Positions 6,042-23,818 of a DNA stretch of 24,797 bases are shown here, in pieces. The stretch comes from a virus (Duplodnaviria; Heunggongvirae; Uroviricota; Caudoviricetes): positions 1 to 24,797 of the IMG/VR virus record IMGVR_UViG_3300017649_000001. One strand, written 5' to 3'. The notes beneath the pieces were generated by a model. It was not told the DNA's origin, ran no database searches, and saw only the letters and a list, made by a program, of their open reading frames with translations. The stretch's first letter is position 1. Each line of letters starts with the position of its first letter. The translations under genes were made by a program, and so were the position numbers.

Positions 6042-6059
6042 TAACTAACTGATTAATTA
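6042..6059. promoter_or_regulatory. Operator palindrome
   Basis: TAACTAA-ctga-TTAATTA (1 mismatch), upstream of the three-orphan cluster. Confidence 0.7.
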
Positions 6060-6097: not shown

Positions 6098-6760
6098 ATG
6101 TCAGATAAAGCAACAGCAATAACAGACGGCAGATCAATGACAGCTAATCGCTACACGGTTAAGGTGACGCGAACACCTTTGACGAATGGCAAACGCACGT
6201 TTGTCTCTTTTGTCGCTGTGGGTTGGAATGGCGCAGCGCTTTTCTTTTCGAGCGCGCCCAATGAAGACGCCTACGGATTAGAAAAGGACGACAAGGAGTA
6301 TCACGCCTGGCTTCCCATCCAGAAGAATGAATCCGGCGTCCAGGCGATCATCGCTGGCAGCAATCTCAATTACAATCGCCGTTCATGGGAATCGAGCCAA
6401 ATGTTCGATGACGATGTGGTGAATTTCTTCAAGGAAATTAAGAAGGTTGGCTACACCGATATCAAGCGCGATTTGGTTCAGCACATCGTCGGCCCAGGGC
6501 TAGACGAGGAGCGGTATTTGGAGCTGCGCGTAAACGCGGCACTGTCTGATGCTGGTAAGCACTTTAGGGCACAAATCAGAGATATCGACTCGCGAAATCC
6601 AGTTTTCGTCAATTTTAAAAGCAGCCTTGATCGTGATCATGCCGCTTATAAGAAGATAGCTGAACGTCGGCGCGCGGAAGCTGAGGAAATTCAAGCCCTG
6701 GAAGCGCTAATCACTAACCAGGTGTTTGCACAGACACACGAAGGTTTTGGAGCGTTCTGA
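6098..6760 (+). CDS. Hypothetical protein, C-terminal FGAF motif (#1)
   Basis: Open frame 6068-6760; ATG at 6098 is preferred over GTG at 6068. Ends ...QTHEGFGAF*. Confidence 0.75.
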   Translation: MSDKATAITDGRSMTANRYTVKVTRTPLTNGKRTFVSFVAVGWNGAALFFSSAPNEDAYGLEKDDKEYHAWLPIQKNESGVQAIIAGSNLNYNRRSWESSQMFDDDVVNFFKEIKKVGYTDIKRDLVQHIVGPGLDEERYLELRVNAALSDAGKHFRAQIRDIDSRNPVFVNFKSSLDRDHAAYKKIAERRRAEAEEIQALEALITNQVFAQTHEGFGAF

Positions 6761-7566
6761 TGAATGAGGTTGATGATTTCGGCCGCAGCGATATCAAGAT
6801 TTTCGCAAATCTTGTCGCCAGCGAACTTACCGACGCGGCGACGCGTAAGAACCCCTTCCTCGATCCTCGCACTGACGGATATCTAAGTAAATCGGTCGCG
6901 GAGTATTTGGGTAGGCTGTACGATAATGGTCTGGCGAGTGCAGATGGCTGGCTGTTTGATACGATGGAGAACTTCGCCGCCATCTACAGATGCGGCTCGA
7001 ACGCAGTTCTGTTTCAAGTTTATATTGCGCCAGATAATGGCGTTTTCGCCTGTATGACGCGATGGATCAGATACGCCGGCCAGTCTTTGAATTTCTTTAA
7101 TTTGGAGAGTCGGGCTGTCTTTCTCAATCCTGAAAATCTCTTAAACCAGGCGATTATATGCGAGGAAAATGTTTCCGCGCCGATGTTCTTTAGTGGCCGC
7201 GTTGGACGGCTCCTGCCTTACATGGATGTGACCTACGAGCGGGATGCATATAAATACTGGCGTCCTCGCAAAAGTGAAAAGGATAAGCGGGCTGGCGGGT
7301 TTGAACCATTCCATCAAATGCTCAGCGGACTTAATCTGGCGGCCGCACTGACCTCTGAGGCTGGTCGAAAGTTCGCCTCATATTACGCCAGCGACAAAGG
7401 TTCAGATACCGGCTCGGGCGATATGTGGGAGGTCGCTCACGCCATTCGCGATTTTCGCTCCAGAGCGGATACGAACGACGATCTTGGCGTCAGTGTCGAA
7501 GGTTATATCAAGCCAAAAATCGATCAGAAGTTCTACGCGGAGCTTCCCGGCTTTGGCGCTTTCTAA
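6760..7566 (+). CDS. Hypothetical protein, C-terminal FGAF motif (#2)
   Basis: 268 aa, TGATG overlap with the previous gene. Ends ...YAELPGFGAF*. Confidence 0.8.
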   Translation: MNEVDDFGRSDIKIFANLVASELTDAATRKNPFLDPRTDGYLSKSVAEYLGRLYDNGLASADGWLFDTMENFAAIYRCGSNAVLFQVYIAPDNGVFACMTRWIRYAGQSLNFFNLESRAVFLNPENLLNQAIICEENVSAPMFFSGRVGRLLPYMDVTYERDAYKYWRPRKSEKDKRAGGFEPFHQMLSGLNLAAALTSEAGRKFASYYASDKGSDTGSGDMWEVAHAIRDFRSRADTNDDLGVSVEGYIKPKIDQKFYAELPGFGAF

Positions 7567-7577
7567 GCGAGGATAGA

Positions 7578-8432
7578 ATGAACAACTGCATCAAAAGCTC
7601 CGTCAATGTTAAGAAGATTCAGTTCTCTCTTTACGGTAGGCCGTTCGGAGCTTTCCATTATGAGCGCTTCGATGACTATTCGTTTCGGGAAGCATTCGTC
7701 CAAGATTTCATAGCGAATCCGGAGGCGGCGCTTGGCTATCGTCACTTTGTCAAAACCATCAAAGACACAAAAGAGAAAACCTCTTTTGGTGCTCTGCAAT
7801 TGATCTATATCCTACCAACGCTACCTGACCCACTCAAAAATCAGTGCGTTCAAACCTTCAATGCGATAATTCCCACCGTTTTCGATGAAGAAATAAACGG
7901 TTGGCGTGTCGGTTATCATTATGAAGAAACTGAGAAGGGCGGCTCGGGATCTGGCATAGCTATTGATAATGTTACATGGGCGAACATGATGGGTCCTGAT
8001 ATCAATCATTATCCCGTTGACGAAGCTTTTCGCCGATATCGTAATCGACTTCGCCGTTATGTGAACAATATTTTTATGGGTTACGCACCTTCGCTTATTG
8101 AGCGAAACTGGTTACCAACCCAATCACGGGCAACATTCTTCTACGGCCACGATGAAAAGAACTACAAAGGTCTTTTCAACAGCAATGCAAGTCTGGCTCT
8201 CGACGGTCTTAATTTATTGCTCGCACTCCAGCATCATGGCGATTTTGGAAAGACAGCGCTCGGAAAAGTGCTCAGCAAGAGCGCTTATAATTTTCGTCCT
8301 ACGGTACATGCTTATCGGAATCGTCGTTCATCGTATGAAATAAAACAAGGCATGATCAACGTACTCGACGATGAAGAAATCCAAAAAGTAGTAGAATACT
8401 ACGCCGACAATCCTCTTTTTGGTGCCTTCTAA
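7578..8432 (+). CDS. Hypothetical protein, C-terminal FGAF motif (#3)
   Basis: ATG at 7578 follows a GAGGA RBS; the 7425 start would overlap the previous gene by 142 nt. Ends ...YADNPLFGAF*. Confidence 0.8.
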   Translation: MNNCIKSSVNVKKIQFSLYGRPFGAFHYERFDDYSFREAFVQDFIANPEAALGYRHFVKTIKDTKEKTSFGALQLIYILPTLPDPLKNQCVQTFNAIIPTVFDEEINGWRVGYHYEETEKGGSGSGIAIDNVTWANMMGPDINHYPVDEAFRRYRNRLRRYVNNIFMGYAPSLIERNWLPTQSRATFFYGHDEKNYKGLFNSNASLALDGLNLLLALQHHGDFGKTALGKVLSKSAYNFRPTVHAYRNRRSSYEIKQGMINVLDDEEIQKVVEYYADNPLFGAF

Positions 8433-8434
8433 GG

Positions 8435-8452
8435 TAACTAACTAATTAGTTT
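8435..8452. promoter_or_regulatory. Operator palindrome
   Basis: TAACTAA-ctaa-TTAGTTT (1 mismatch), upstream of the Cys-rich ORF/ligase unit. Confidence 0.7.
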
Positions 8453-17838: not shown

Positions 17839-20800
17839 ATGAATACCGCCCTCGCCTGCCGTTCTGATTTCTCCCTTGGTGAGTCCATTTTGACCACCGA
17901 TTATATCGTGCGTGACGCGAAAGCTGCCGGGCAGACTGCCGTGGCGCTTACTGACACAATGAGCGTTACCGCAATGACGAACTTTTTCGGTGCCGCGAAA
18001 AAGGATGGGCTGAAGGCGATCATTGGAACGCGTCTACGTTTAACAGACAATCCAACCTGGCGGCCTGGCAAGGACCAGAAGAAAAAGGATATGCCGCGTA
18101 CTTACTGCGCGATCCTTTATGCGCGTACTGAGGCGGGTCTAAAGGTGATCTATCGCCTTCTGTCACTCGCTAATTCAGAAGCACGGTTCTACTACGAGTC
18201 CAAGCTTGGCTTCGACGATCTGTATAAGGAGCTGGACGCCGCGGGTAATGACGATCTGGCGATCGTGTATGGCGATACACATAGCATTCTGGAACACCCT
18301 GAGTTCGATAAGATCGCTTCGCGGTTAAAGACGACTGGTGTTTCTGAGATTTTTGCGCCGTTCGTTCCGGTAAACACCCCGTATTTCGCTCGATTGTCAG
18401 AGTTGGCTGCTAATGCGTGCCGTGACGGCTATGCGAAGCCGCTTGTTATTCGACCAGCGCTCTATGAGCGCGATGCTGCGGATTATAAAGAAATCATCAC
18501 GGCTGCGATCGGCAATCAGAAGATTACTGATCCTTGGTTTCGCTCTGCCTACAATCGCGACTTTCATATCATGCAAAAGCCGGAACTGACGGCCGAGCTG
18601 GTGAAAACTGGCAAGATGTTGCAGACGCTTGGTAAGGATGAAGCGTTGAAGCAGATGCGCGCAGGCATCGCCAATACTGAAACCTTTCCCGATCTGTTCA
18701 CGTATGAATGGAGCAAATCCGGCGTCACTCTGCCAAAGCTAGTTCCCAACGAGTTCGCAAAAGTAGTCGAGGAATGCAAGCTTGGCTGGACACGTCGGTT
18801 CATGTCACCGGTTTTTGGTCATATGCCGGATATGACTGAACTGAGCACGGTTTACATGCCGCGTTTGAAATACGAGCTGGAAGTTCTCCAAAAGCTCGAC
18901 TTCTCTGGCTACTTTCTGCTCGTCCAGGATATCGTTCGACATGCAAAGGATTCAGGTATTCTTGTAGGTCCAGGTCGAGGCTCCGTCGGCGGCTCCCTTG
19001 TCGCTTATCTTATGGGCATCACTGAATGCGATCCAATCAGGTTCGGCCTTCTGTTCGAACGCTTCATCAATCCGGAGCGTATCGACTTGCCTGACGCCGA
19101 TCTCGACTTCATGTCCGAGCGCCGTCACGAGATTTTCGAATATCTGTATGCCAAATATGGCGAGGAATACACTGCCGGTGTCTCAAACTACGGCACACTC
19201 GGCGGCGCATCTGCAATTCGCGACGTATCGAAGGCAATGGGTATCCCGGAGCGCGAGTATTCGATCTCCAAGATGGTGCCGAAAGAGCACGGTCAGCCAG
19301 TCGCTCTTCAGAAGGCTCGTGAGAGTGTGCCCGAGATTGACGACTACGCTACCAAATACGAGGCAGTGTGGTCAGTTATCGAGCGCGCCGAAGACAACAT
19401 GCGATCTTATGGTCAGCACGCAGCCGGTGTCGTTGTAGCCGGTGAGCCGCTTGTAAATCGTGCGGTTCTGGAGCGTCGCGCAAACGGTCAGGTTGTCTGT
19501 TGGGACAAGCGCATCGTTGAAGATCAGGGATTGGTAAAGGTTGATATTCTTGGCCTGAAAACACTCGATCTAATCGATCTGGCGCTGACCTATATTCGCG
19601 AGCGATACACAAGCGTCCCGGATCTTCATCAAATCCCGCTTGATGATGAGAAAGTGCTCGCCAATTTTGCTGAAGGTAACTCTGTTGCTGTGTTCCAGTT
19701 CGAAAGCCCTGGAATGAGAAAGTTGCTGCGCGAAGTCGGTGCAGGTGGCGATATCACATTTGAAGACGTCTCTGCCTGCACCGCACTTTATCGACCTGGC
19801 CCGATGGAGTCAGGTATGATGGACAGCTTCTACTTGCGCAAACAGGGTAAAGAGCCAGTTTCTTATGATCACGCCCTTATGGAAGACGTTCTGAAGGAAA
19901 CATTCGGCGTTATCACCTATCAGGAACAGGTCATGCGTATCTCTCAGGTGATCGCAGGCTATTCCGGCGCCGAAGCAGACAAACTGCGCAAGATCATGGG
20001 CAAAAAACAGCCTGACGAAATGGCAAAGCAGAAGGATAAGTTCATAGAAGGCTGCGTCAACACAATCGGCGCAACTGAGACGTGGGCTGGCTCGCTGTTT
20101 GAAAAGATCGCAGGTTTCGCGGGCTACGGTTTCAATAAAAGCCATAGTATCGAGTACACGCTGATCTCCTATCAGTCGATGTACCTCAAGACCTATTATC
20201 CTGCAGAGTTCTATGCGGCAGCCTTGTCGATCCTTGATGACGACAAACTTAACGCCATCGTTAGAGACGCCAAGCGAGCGGGTATCGACATTTCTGTGCC
20301 CGATATCAATATCTCCACCAACCGGTTCGAGATTGCGACCAGCGCTCGCCTTGTAACACCTTTCAATCGTATCAAAGGAATTTCGTCACGTACCGGCGAT
20401 GCAATATTGGCGGCGCGCGCAGCAGGTCCGTTTAAAGACAAGGCTGATTTTTTGGCGCGTGTCGAGCGACAGAAGTGCAATGTAAAGCACCAAAAGCTTC
20501 TCGATGACGTTGGTGCGTTCTCGCGCATTGAGTTAAGTCAACCCCCAGCGGACGATCCCACCCGTATTCTGTCGCAGATCGAGCTTCTGCCGGGCCTTGT
20601 TATCAGCACGGTCCCGGTCAATCGCGACCTCGATGCATCGAAGCTATCGCGTGAAATGGTTTCTGACGTGATCAACGCCTGCAGAACGGCTTATGGTCCG
20701 ACGGCACCTGTGCCAGATGGTGTTATCGTATCGCCGAGGTTCGGTAAGGACGCGCGTTTTGTTGTCGTGATGGATGCGCCAAGCAAAGATGAGGAAGATG

Positions 20801-21198
20801 CCGGCGTTATGGGTCCGTCAAATGCCGCAGAAGCGATCAAGGATGCGCTCGCTCTACACGGTATGACGATTGATGAAATGTACTGGACAGCGCTGATCAA
20901 GCGGCCCAAACAGGGCAAACAAGTCATGCCAGACGAGATCGCCAAGTATGCGCCATTTCTTGAGCGCGAGCTTGAGCAGATCGGTTCGCCCGTCATCGTC
21001 ACGCTTGGCACTGCTGCCACGCGGTATTTCCTTCCTGACTTTAAAGGTAAGGCGTCAGACGCTGCCGGTCAGATCCATTACGACAAGACCCGCGACGTGA
21101 ATATCGTCGTCGGTTTTAATCCGAACGAGATCCATTTCGATCCCGACAAACTCGAAAATCTCGTTGAGGTTTTCGCGTCCGTTGTCGATCTGCTCTAG
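17839..21198 (+). CDS. dnaE: DNA polymerase III alpha subunit (family C) with C-terminal UDG-like domain
   Basis: PHP-like N-terminus (RSDFSLGES, LTDT), GPGRGSVGGSL, catalytic PDADLDF, KVDILGLKTL, FQFES, ALYRPGPM, GYGFNKSH, PDINIS. The last ~185 aa follow a family-4 UDG pattern. Confidence 0.95.
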   Translation: MNTALACRSDFSLGESILTTDYIVRDAKAAGQTAVALTDTMSVTAMTNFFGAAKKDGLKAIIGTRLRLTDNPTWRPGKDQKKKDMPRTYCAILYARTEAGLKVIYRLLSLANSEARFYYESKLGFDDLYKELDAAGNDDLAIVYGDTHSILEHPEFDKIASRLKTTGVSEIFAPFVPVNTPYFARLSELAANACRDGYAKPLVIRPALYERDAADYKEIITAAIGNQKITDPWFRSAYNRDFHIMQKPELTAELVKTGKMLQTLGKDEALKQMRAGIANTETFPDLFTYEWSKSGVTLPKLVPNEFAKVVEECKLGWTRRFMSPVFGHMPDMTELSTVYMPRLKYELEVLQKLDFSGYFLLVQDIVRHAKDSGILVGPGRGSVGGSLVAYLMGITECDPIRFGLLFERFINPERIDLPDADLDFMSERRHEIFEYLYAKYGEEYTAGVSNYGTLGGASAIRDVSKAMGIPEREYSISKMVPKEHGQPVALQKARESVPEIDDYATKYEAVWSVIERAEDNMRSYGQHAAGVVVAGEPLVNRAVLERRANGQVVCWDKRIVEDQGLVKVDILGLKTLDLIDLALTYIRERYTSVPDLHQIPLDDEKVLANFAEGNSVAVFQFESPGMRKLLREVGAGGDITFEDVSACTALYRPGPMESGMMDSFYLRKQGKEPVSYDHALMEDVLKETFGVITYQEQVMRISQVIAGYSGAEADKLRKIMGKKQPDEMAKQKDKFIEGCVNTIGATETWAGSLFEKIAGFAGYGFNKSHSIEYTLISYQSMYLKTYYPAEFYAAALSILDDDKLNAIVRDAKRAGIDISVPDINISTNRFEIATSARLVTPFNRIKGISSRTGDAILAARAAGPFKDKADFLARVERQKCNVKHQKLLDDVGAFSRIELSQPPADDPTRILSQIELLPGLVISTVPVNRDLDASKLSREMVSDVINACRTAYGPTAPVPDGVIVSPRFGKDARFVVVMDAPSKDEEDAGVMGPSNAAEAIKDALALHGMTIDEMYWTALIKRPKQGKQVMPDEIAKYAPFLERELEQIGSPVIVTLGTAATRYFLPDFKGKASDAAGQIHYDKTRDVNIVVGFNPNEIHFDPDKLENLVEVFASVVDLL

Positions 21199-21207
21199 GA
21201 GTTTCAG

Positions 21208-21891
21208 TTGCGCATATTTGGTGGAGACTGCAATCCGGGTAGTCCAAGAATTATAGATATTGAGAACCGGATCGAAACCATCATCGCCGGCTCCAAAATT
21301 CTTCGTCAGTCGCGTGAATTTGTTCACCCTGCGTTGGCTATGGAACTCAGGCTTATGCTTGAGAGCTTGGAAAACGGCTTGGCGTCTTATAGATATCTCG
21401 CCAATCTCTTGCTCAGATACTCGCTCTATAATCTCGCGGACACGACGCATAGAGTTTTGGCGACGAAAATCGCCACCTTGTCGCACATAATCACCAGTCT
21501 TTTGGGTACAGGTAAGGTCTACGCTCAACCTGTTCGTGAGATCAGAGCTTCATTTAAGGAAGTTCACGCTCTAATGGAGCTGACTGCTTACCTTAATGAA
21601 GCTCTCAACGTGAAGAAAACCGACGGGGACACTCATAAAATCAATGGCGCTGAAATAACGCTGCGCGGTTTCAAGAGCACGATTGCCGAAAATGCAGACA
21701 GTACATTTTCGGCAATCGTATCTACGGATGAATTTGTTCTGTCCGAGGGGCTTTTTACAGTAGCTCCGATATTATCAACGTTCGAACATTTCGACTTGGA
21801 ATCGGGTTATTTCCCGTTCCCCACTCCAGCCGAAGCTATAATTAAAATCGAAATGACACATGAAACACTCCCTGGTTTCGGTGCGTTCTGA
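21208..21891 (+). CDS. Hypothetical protein, C-terminal FGAF motif (#4)
   Basis: TTG start after AGGAG, which overlaps the dnaE stop. Ends ...HETLPGFGAF*. Confidence 0.7.
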   Translation: MRIFGGDCNPGSPRIIDIENRIETIIAGSKILRQSREFVHPALAMELRLMLESLENGLASYRYLANLLLRYSLYNLADTTHRVLATKIATLSHIITSLLGTGKVYAQPVREIRASFKEVHALMELTAYLNEALNVKKTDGDTHKINGAEITLRGFKSTIAENADSTFSAIVSTDEFVLSEGLFTVAPILSTFEHFDLESGYFPFPTPAEAIIKIEMTHETLPGFGAF

Positions 21892-21900
21892 AGGTGAAAA

Positions 21901-22416
21901 ATGGCTGAAGAAGAAACCAAACACGTTGTCAACGTGATGGATTACACCGACCCAAAAGTTTTGGGCACGGATCTGTCATATTCGACGACCGATCTTTCTA
22001 CCGCGATGCAGAAGCAATCGCCGCTGTTCGCACATTATGGCGTTCAGGCAGCAAAAGCGTCCGCTCAGGTAGACGCCTTGAAGCTGGTTCTCGAAACGAC
22101 CGAGGCCAATGTTTACAAGGTTCTTCGTTCGTCCTTGCTTGCCACTGGCGACAAGCCCACCGAGGCGCAGCTTGAAAAGCTCGTTTCGGCCCATGAGAAG
22201 GTAATCGCTATCAAAAAGGCGATCATTAAGGCAAAGCAGATCGAATCCAATGCGAAGACAGCGGTCGAAGCCTTCCGGCATCGTAAGGATATGCTTATTC
22301 AACATGGCCTCATTTCGCGTGAGGAAATGCGTGGCGACATTCGTATCGCCGAGAAAAATCAACGGGATGATATTGTCGCTCAATATCATAACCGTCGTCA
22401 GGCCGAAGCCTCTTAA
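21901..22416 (+). CDS. UvsY-like helical recombination/ssDNA-binding mediator
   Basis: All-helical protein with ...KPTEAQLEKLV...AVEAFRHRKDMLIQ, resembling UvsY-type proteins; lies near the SSB gene. Confidence 0.55.
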   Translation: MAEEETKHVVNVMDYTDPKVLGTDLSYSTTDLSTAMQKQSPLFAHYGVQAAKASAQVDALKLVLETTEANVYKVLRSSLLATGDKPTEAQLEKLVSAHEKVIAIKKAIIKAKQIESNAKTAVEAFRHRKDMLIQHGLISREEMRGDIRIAEKNQRDDIVAQYHNRRQAEAS

Positions 22417-22843: not shown

Positions 22844-23818
22844 ATGGCTCTTTCTGCAGAATTTCGCGCACTTCTCTCGCAGTCCAAAGCAAAATACTCC
22901 TCGAATAACACCAAGACGATCAAGCCGAAGGACGGTCGCAACACTTATCGACTTCTCGTTCCGAACGCTGAATGGGTCAAGAATGGCAAATTCTGGGCTG
23001 ATCTCGGACTTCATTGGATCAAGTCTGATCCGGACGGCAAGCCGCTTGCAGTCGTCGGCGACTGTGAAGTTGTTTACGGCCAGTATTCCCCGATCAACGC
23101 GATGATTCAGGCAGCTATCGCTGGCGCCAACTACAACGAAGACGCCAAGAAGCTCTACGAAAGCTGGAAGTCGCGCAAGTCGATCCTCGTCAATGTTCTG
23201 GATCGCAGCACGAACTCTGATCAACCTGAAATTCTTGAAATCACGCCTACGACCTTCTCTTCGATCCTTGAACAGATCGAATTGTATGCGGACTCGGGCG
23301 TCGACATTCTCGATCCGGTGCATGGTATGGACATTATCATCACCAAGTCGGGCAAGATGCTCAACACCAAGTACGAAGTCGCTGTTGCGCCCCAGGTGCC
23401 CGGCAAGGCTTCGGCGCCGGTGACGCCGGCTCAGCTCGCCGCCTGTAACGATCTCCAGAAGTTCATCGCGGACAACTACTTCCGCGGCGAAGAGGAGAAG
23501 GCAATGAACCTGATCTCACAGTTCTCCGGCGTTGTCGCTCCGAATGCTCCAGCGGCGCTCGGCACCACGCGTACTGCAACCCCTGCCCTCACCGCGTCGA
23601 GCGCAGTTGTTGAAGGTGCTCAAGTTGTGCAGCAGGTGACGCAGCCTGTTCAGGCTGAAATTGTCCAGACCACGCCGGTGCAGCCCGTACAGACTGTGCA
23701 ACAGGTTCAGCCTGTTCAGCAGACGGCTGCTCCCGTTCAGACCATCGATGGTGGTCTCGCTCTCTCGCCCGAAGCAGAGCGCGATATCTTCAACGAACTG
23801 GACAGCATGTTGAACTGA
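22844..23818 (+). CDS. Single-stranded DNA-binding protein (T4 gp32-like)
   Basis: KPKDGRNTYRLL...LHWIK...LEITPTTF...GMDIIITKSGK..NTKYEV fits phage SSBs; low-complexity Q/V/P/T linker and acidic C-terminus DIFNELDSMLN. RBS AAGGA. Confidence 0.72.
   Translation: MALSAEFRALLSQSKAKYSSNNTKTIKPKDGRNTYRLLVPNAEWVKNGKFWADLGLHWIKSDPDGKPLAVVGDCEVVYGQYSPINAMIQAAIAGANYNEDAKKLYESWKSRKSILVNVLDRSTNSDQPEILEITPTTFSSILEQIELYADSGVDILDPVHGMDIIITKSGKMLNTKYEVAVAPQVPGKASAPVTPAQLAACNDLQKFIADNYFRGEEEKAMNLISQFSGVVAPNAPAALGTTRTATPALTASSAVVEGAQVVQQVTQPVQAEIVQTTPVQPVQTVQQVQPVQQTAAPVQTIDGGLALSPEAERDIFNELDSMLN

Follow-up and report, generated by a model that had tools for sequence, protein, structure and literature searches.

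Short C-terminal tails that dock otherwise different proteins onto a common partner are known in phage replication. In phage T7, the single-strand DNA-binding protein gp2.5 and the helicase-primase gp4 share a flexible C-terminal tail ending in an essential Phe, which binds the front basic patch of the T7 DNA polymerase (PMC12339929). In the beta sliding clamp system a short, often C-terminal hydrophobic peptide shared by many DNA-metabolism proteins is read by one hub pocket (PMC11139829). Here we describe a different tail, found in a group of SSU5-like phage-plasmids. Its core is aromatic-Gly-x-aromatic directly before the stop codon, and it marks 2 to about 11 mostly orphan, swappable proteins per genome, whereas the T7 tails are strongly acidic (…DTDF) and occur on two core proteins. 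The residues preceding the terminal aromatic are N/P/G/A/T with only scattered acidic residues, and the tail thus does not correspond to the T7-type run of acidic residues. It also does not fit the clamp-binding motifs Q-phi-x-[L/M]-[F/L] or Q-phi-x-[L/M]-x-[F/L], since in 55 tails the Gln is absent and the position equivalent to [L/M] is either the invariant Gly at -3 or a free residue (A, R, D, G, S, T, K, E), so that only the terminal aromatic fits. Compared to the bacterial SSB C-terminal tip (…DDDIPF), which appears to organise genome-maintenance proteins by inserting a terminal Phe with a free carboxylate into partner pockets, the polarity is reversed. There, one protein carries the tail and many proteins read it, while here many proteins carry the tail, which implies one reader. 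The gp32-like SSB of this phage has its own, acidic amphipathic tail (…D-I/L-L-A-E-L-D-N-L-V type in the SSBs of this phage group), which is a separate tail system. The RNR small subunits of the Rhizobium phages X66 and RHEph10 end in acidic residues plus Phe (…DDDNF, …ADDEF), as is classical for R2-to-R1 docking tails, and the RHEph10 glutaredoxin-like protein ends …GDDDF, while the small subunit in the present genome ends differently. We found no description of the aromatic-Gly-x-aromatic tail, of its distribution over a whole phage-plasmid group or of its association with swappable gene slots in the literature we searched.

The analysed window, i.e. the whole stretch of 24,797 nucleotides under study, is the first 24.8 kb of a complete 112,228-bp viral genome with direct terminal repeats that was assembled from a soil metagenome. 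The genome is a rhizobial member of the SSU5-like phage-plasmids. Its DnaE is 58-61% identical to those of Rhizobium phages RHph_X66 (X66), B1VFA, V1VFA-S and RHEph10, and 36-45% identical to those of Stenotrophomonas phage BUCTxx99, Pseudomonas phage nickie and Salmonella phage SSU5. The window encodes PhoH, a DnaB-type helicase, primase, ligase, RepC, CobT/CobS-like proteins, a sigma factor, DnaE with a fused UDG-like domain, a UvsY-like protein, a gp32-like SSB and a 5'-3' exonuclease. The features relevant here are collected in the table.

Table. Positions of the features discussed in the text. Positions refer to the window, whose numbering is that of the genome; features marked "genome" lie outside the window, and features of other phages are named as such.
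Feature	Position	Strand	Description
A	6098-6760	+	Tagged orphan, ends ...THEGFGAF; longest ORF starts at GTG 6068, ATG 6098 is an alternative start
B	6760-7566	+	Tagged orphan, ends ...AELPGFGAF
C	7578-8432	+	Tagged orphan, ends ...ADNPLFGAF
Internal P-F-G-A-F of C	7641-7655		Residues 22-26, near the N-terminus
dnaE	17839-21198	+	DnaE-type polymerase with PHP, core, fingers and HhH domains plus a fused UDG-like C-terminal domain (residues about 905-1119); stop codon TAG 21196-21198
Conserved motif in DnaE	20572-20598		DnaE residues 912-920, at the start of the UDG-like domain
Ribosome-binding site and start of D	21197-21210	+	AGGAG (21197-21201) overlapping the dnaE stop codon, 6 nt before the TTG start at 21208
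D	21208-21891	+	Orphan gene, 227 aa; predicted helical N-terminal half; ends ...ETLPGFGAF
Tail of D	21868-21888	+	L-P-G-F-G-A-F
UvsY-like gene	21901-22416	+	UvsY-like recombination mediator (phrog_2058)
gp32-like SSB	22844-23818	+	Pfam gp32 and phrog_1192
Acidic tail of the SSB	23770-23815		
E (genome)	30687-31544		Tagged protein
F (genome)	31559-31975		Tagged protein
G (genome)	63487-63783		Tagged protein
Palindromic operator copies bracketing A-B-C	6042-6059 and 8435-8452		TAACTAA…TTAGTTA
Further operator copies	1892, 3575, 15303, 22453 and 22776		
Acb2/Tad1 hairpin protein and HslV-family peptidase (genome)	73932-75061 (L059:11933-13062)		Overlapping pair; peptidase (phrog_1040) at 74456-75061
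Examples of -Ala-Ala endings	ends of 729, 2729, 10601 and 24824		
Tandem array of BUCTxx99	27312-30074	-	Nine consecutive small genes (64-138 aa) ending Y-G-x-W; the one at 29727-30074 is a BRCT-domain protein
RNR genes of X66	about 80495-83384		

The initial annotation had described gene D as an orphan with a TTG start coupled to the dnaE stop, sharing its C-terminal end with protein B and being more AT-rich than dnaE. These observations are confirmed. The ORF ends ...EMTHETLPGFGAF, with codons TTC GGT GCG TTC TGA, and its TTG start lies nine bases after the dnaE stop. The position of the ribosome-binding site indicates translational coupling to dnaE. A 78%-identical orthologue in a related contig (L052) sits at the same place and has an ATG start codon at the same position, which supports the start. 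The gene has 46.3% GC against 52.2% for dnaE and 51.9% for the genome. It is under purifying selection but evolves fast, with dN/dS 0.35 and dN 0.135, compared to dN/dS 0.04 and dN 0.009 for dnaE and similar values for the UvsY-like gene (dN/dS 0.04), while its last 20 residues are identical in the orthologue. Apart from this orthologue and one fragment identical to part of D, no other homologue was found among 5.8 billion clusters or 1.84 billion representatives. Neither Pfam nor PHROGs gave a match for D or A, the AlphaFold model of D (pLDDT 31) is unusable, and the ESM Atlas gave no usable hit.

The genes flanking D belong to a T4-like module. For the downstream neighbour there is no Pfam UvsY match. 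However, its AlphaFold model (pLDDT 81) has T4 UvsY as its 18 best PDB matches, with probability up to 1.0 and TM-score up to 0.74, although E is only about 0.03, and the gene lies between dnaE and the gp32-like SSB. A homologue is present in all seven genomes compared. In nickie the post-dnaE gene is a UvsY-like domain fused to a long acidic, low-complexity extension and not to a D-like domain, and thus gives no fusion evidence for a partner. Upstream, the UDG-like domain is present in all of 91 DnaE homologues but itself lacks the family-4 catalytic motifs. At its start, the motif D/S-Q-x-E-L-L-P-G-L is at least 90% conserved in 41 DnaE homologues and resembles a hexameric beta-clamp-binding motif (Q-phi-x-L-x-L type).

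To evaluate whether the tail exceeds chance expectation, we scanned the whole genome. FGAF occurs seven times in all six reading frames, and five of these are the exact C-terminus of long + strand ORFs. Counting YGAF, seven proteins (A to G) end [FY]GAF, where 0.003 are expected from composition, and the motif occurs only once internally in 34,575 residues, namely in protein C. Hence, D is the fourth tagged protein in the window, as initially annotated, but one of seven in the genome. BLAST among A to E and the protein occupying the dnaE slot of X66 gives no significant match (best E about 0.02-0.1, and about 0.1 among the five FGAF proteins), and nearly all weak matches are the last 13-19 residues. 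Local duplication is thus excluded as the explanation, in line with the initial annotation, which had argued against it from the separate locus. The four tail codons differ at synonymous positions in all seven genes, so selection acts on the peptide. The extended consensus is [Y/F]-x3-P-x-[F/Y]-G-A-F-COOH, usually preceded by a charged helical stretch.

De novo counting of C-terminal tetrapeptides in six related genomes showed that each has its own over-represented ending of this type on multiple unrelated proteins. X66 and B1VFA carry [FY][GA][ARGTK]F on 7-10 proteins, RHEph10 carries [FY]G[RM]F on 7, BUCTxx99 carries YGxW on about 11 (nine of them consecutive small genes), nickie carries GxWA on about 7 (FGxWA as the Pseudomonas version) and SSU5 carries WATW on 2. 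Further members were scanned by pattern only. Klebsiella phage pJN2-26 has exactly two WATW-stop sites with other codons and phiK7B1 has six GxWA-stop sites, all on the coding strand, while Escherichia phage Cyrano has no exact WATW-stop site. Orthologous tagged proteins keep the tail in the version of their clade, as seen in the family encoded after SbcC, which ends ...PTFGAF in the present genome, ...ELFGAF in X66 and ...PNFGRF in RHEph10. A homologue search with this post-SbcC protein returned only two sequences.

Tagged genes recur at three junctions of the replication-recombination module, i.e. between primase and ligase, between dnaE and the UvsY-like gene, and between SbcC and the RuvC-like gene. 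The only two tagged genes of SSU5 occupy the first and the third of these slots. Tagged genes overlap or abut the stop codons of dnaE and SbcC, or the start of the RuvC-like gene. Some, however, lie outside the module, namely G at 63.5 kb, a cluster of X66 at 108-112 kb and the BUCTxx99 array at 27-30 kb. In the present genome, the A-B-C cluster is bracketed by copies of a palindromic operator, which marks these genes as one separately controlled unit, while D has no operator next to it and lies inside the cobS-to-uvsY run of + strand genes. We examined the dnaE slot in 86 relatives, comprising six contigs and 80 IMG/VR loci. The latter are the best of 95 found with a profile of the UDG-like domain, after a search with the full DnaE had found no relatives. 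The slot is empty in the RHEph10 clade and in many IMG/VR relatives. In others it holds one of at least six mutually unrelated tagged families, namely the D family (own genome and the loci L052 and L062), the X66/B1VFA/L063 family (...FGAF/YGAF), the L065 family (...FGLF), L077 (...FGIF), L078 (...YGRF) and a 52-aa B1VFA protein (...FGAF). A protein of locus L064 (...FGEF) was unrelated to the others in a smaller comparison. All members of each tagged family retain the tail (10/10, 3/3 and 3/3 within tagged slot families). In some relatives the slot holds untagged genes, among them two ordinary orthologous families with the recurrent endings …STRNPD and …GTW[SH][FW]P[PE]RV, which are not tags. 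The slot is thus a general hot spot for gene replacement, not only for tagged genes.

These results support the initial annotation, which had inferred that tagged cargo genes are acquired independently at several sites and that more should exist elsewhere in the element, and had proposed testing whether replacements at the dnaE-uvsY site also carry the tag. Both checks came out in favour of this inference. The term cargo, however, implies delivery or packaging, which nothing here shows, and not all tagged genes are recent acquisitions, since the post-SbcC family is shared, tail included, by three Rhizobium-phage clades. Most tagged proteins have no recognisable domain. Among 55 tagged proteins Pfam recognises only three WGR proteins, all in the primase-ligase slot (X66, B1VFA and RHEph10), two BRCT proteins, one of them located in the BUCTxx99 array, and a cytidine/dCMP deaminase after SbcC in BUCTxx99. 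These are DNA-metabolism modules, but this label rests on 6 of 55 proteins.

We therefore favour, at about even odds, the reading that the tail is a short linear docking peptide, consisting of an optional Tyr, then Asn/Pro, then aromatic-Gly-x-aromatic at the free C-terminus, which would plug otherwise unrelated, fast-evolving accessory proteins into one common partner. The strictly terminal position, the two aromatic anchors and the invariant Gly resemble known pocket-binding tails such as the beta-clamp motifs (PMC11139829) and the terminal-Phe tails of T7 gp2.5 and gp4 (PMC12339929), although the residue at position -2 is free (A, R, D, G, S, T, K, E, L), so the motif carries little information beyond two aromatics and a Gly. 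Binding itself is inferred and the partner is not identified. It most likely belongs to the T4-like recombination-replication machinery of the phage, which comprises DnaE with its UDG-like domain, UvsY-like, gp32-like SSB, RecA/UvsX-like, SbcCD, RuvC-like, UvsW-like, primase, helicase and ligase proteins. Gene D would be one such accessory, co-transcribed and translationally coupled with dnaE and so made alongside the polymerase, with its tail taking it to the shared socket. Because only the tail has to be kept, the body of the protein could be swapped or diverge freely, which would explain why the same gene slots hold different tagged proteins in different relatives. The version of the tail differs between phage clades that infect the same host genus (FGAF, FGxF and FGRF in Rhizobium phages), which favours a co-evolving, phage-encoded reader over a conserved host hub. 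One idea for such a reader, recognition of the C-terminal carboxylate by the VWA/MIDAS domain of CobT, is weakened but not excluded by Vibrio phage ICP2, which has CobT and CobS but no such tails.

Other roles of the tail appear less likely but remain possible. A degradation tag, read by a host AAA+ protease or by the phage's own HslV-like peptidase, could keep accessory proteins short-lived or silent in the plasmid-prophage state. Strictly C-terminal hydrophobic or aromatic tags probably act in this way in ssrA-type degrons, and the rhizobial members and nickie encode an HslV-family peptidase. In the present genome, this peptidase has Ser2 as its likely nucleophile and a coiled-coil C-terminal extension, and the start of its gene is overlapped by a gene for a protein with an Acb2/Tad1 hairpin domain (anti-CBASS/anti-Thoeris sponge family, Pfam E 5e-15). 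The pair is conserved in X66, B1VFA and RHEph10, while the HslV-like gene of nickie is of the Thr type. Moreover, 16 of 149 proteins of this genome end in -Ala-Ala against 1.6 expected, with 22, 16 and 14 in X66, B1VFA and RHEph10 but 0 in BUCTxx99 and nickie. Many carriers are core replication or recombination enzymes (ligase, exonuclease, RecA-like, SbcCD, RuvC-like, epsilon-like, UvsW-like), and the -AA, which resembles the ssrA/ClpXP-type degrons of alphaproteobacteria, is kept across clades while neighbouring residues vary. This hints that C-terminal recognition matters in these phages. The tails studied here, however, end in F, W or WA and not in small non-polar residues such as -LAA or -AA, no HslV-like gene was detected in BUCTxx99, with its about eleven tagged proteins, or in SSU5, and a motif that changes between clades infecting the same host genus is unexpected for a conserved host protease. 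A degron also does not explain why tagged proteins are DNA-binding modules placed in replication slots, and we regard it as unlikely.

The hijacking of a host hub, such as the beta sliding clamp or a partner of host SSB, is somewhat less likely still. No clamp gene is detectable in the complete genome, so the phage DnaE probably uses host factors, and clamp-binding motifs are often C-terminal and end in Phe (PMC11139829). As outlined above, however, the tail lacks the Gln and is free and often charged where the canonical motif requires Leu or Met, and it differs by phage clade although the clamp pocket is conserved across bacteria (PMC11139829). Even more doubtful is a virion-targeting signal that loads proteins into the procapsid for co-injection with the DNA. 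Many unrelated proteins sharing one terminal peptide would be expected of such cargo systems, as with the capsid-targeting sequence of T4 internal proteins or encapsulin cargo peptides. DNA-end-binding modules (WGR, BRCT) could protect or circularise incoming DNA, and the scaffold and the major capsid protein are conserved in all members. Yet the tagged genes sit in replication operons, coupled to dnaE or SbcC, and not in the late structural operon, the tail is not near any cleavage-type motif, whereas the T4 signal appears to be N-terminal and cleaved, and no virion proteomics data were found that would bear on packaging. A role without a common partner, either in cis as a helix cap or stabiliser or as a by-product of a nucleotide-level signal at gene ends, is very unlikely, even though the motif is short. 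Synonymous codons vary freely in the tail, so it is not a DNA or RNA signal, and a cis cap would not be expected on unrelated folds, nor to change in step within each phage clade.

More tentatively, and somewhat less likely than not, SSU5-like phage-plasmids from Rhizobium to Salmonella and Klebsiella may share an undescribed hub-and-tail system, in which one conserved, probably phage-encoded socket in their T4-like replication-recombination machinery reads an aromatic-Gly-x-aromatic C-terminus. This would let the phage recruit an open-ended, rapidly exchanged repertoire of accessory proteins (nick and end sensors, a deaminase, and possibly anti-defence factors) simply by keeping a short C-terminal tail of about 4 to 11 residues. 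If the tail is a plug for one socket, it gives an experimental handle on dozens of orphan genes at once, in a group with cultured, genetically tractable members, and naming the hub would assign a cellular address to proteins that no homology search can annotate. It would also show how large phage-plasmids, a group that includes plasmid-prophages of Salmonella, Klebsiella and E. coli, add and swap accessory functions without re-evolving interfaces.
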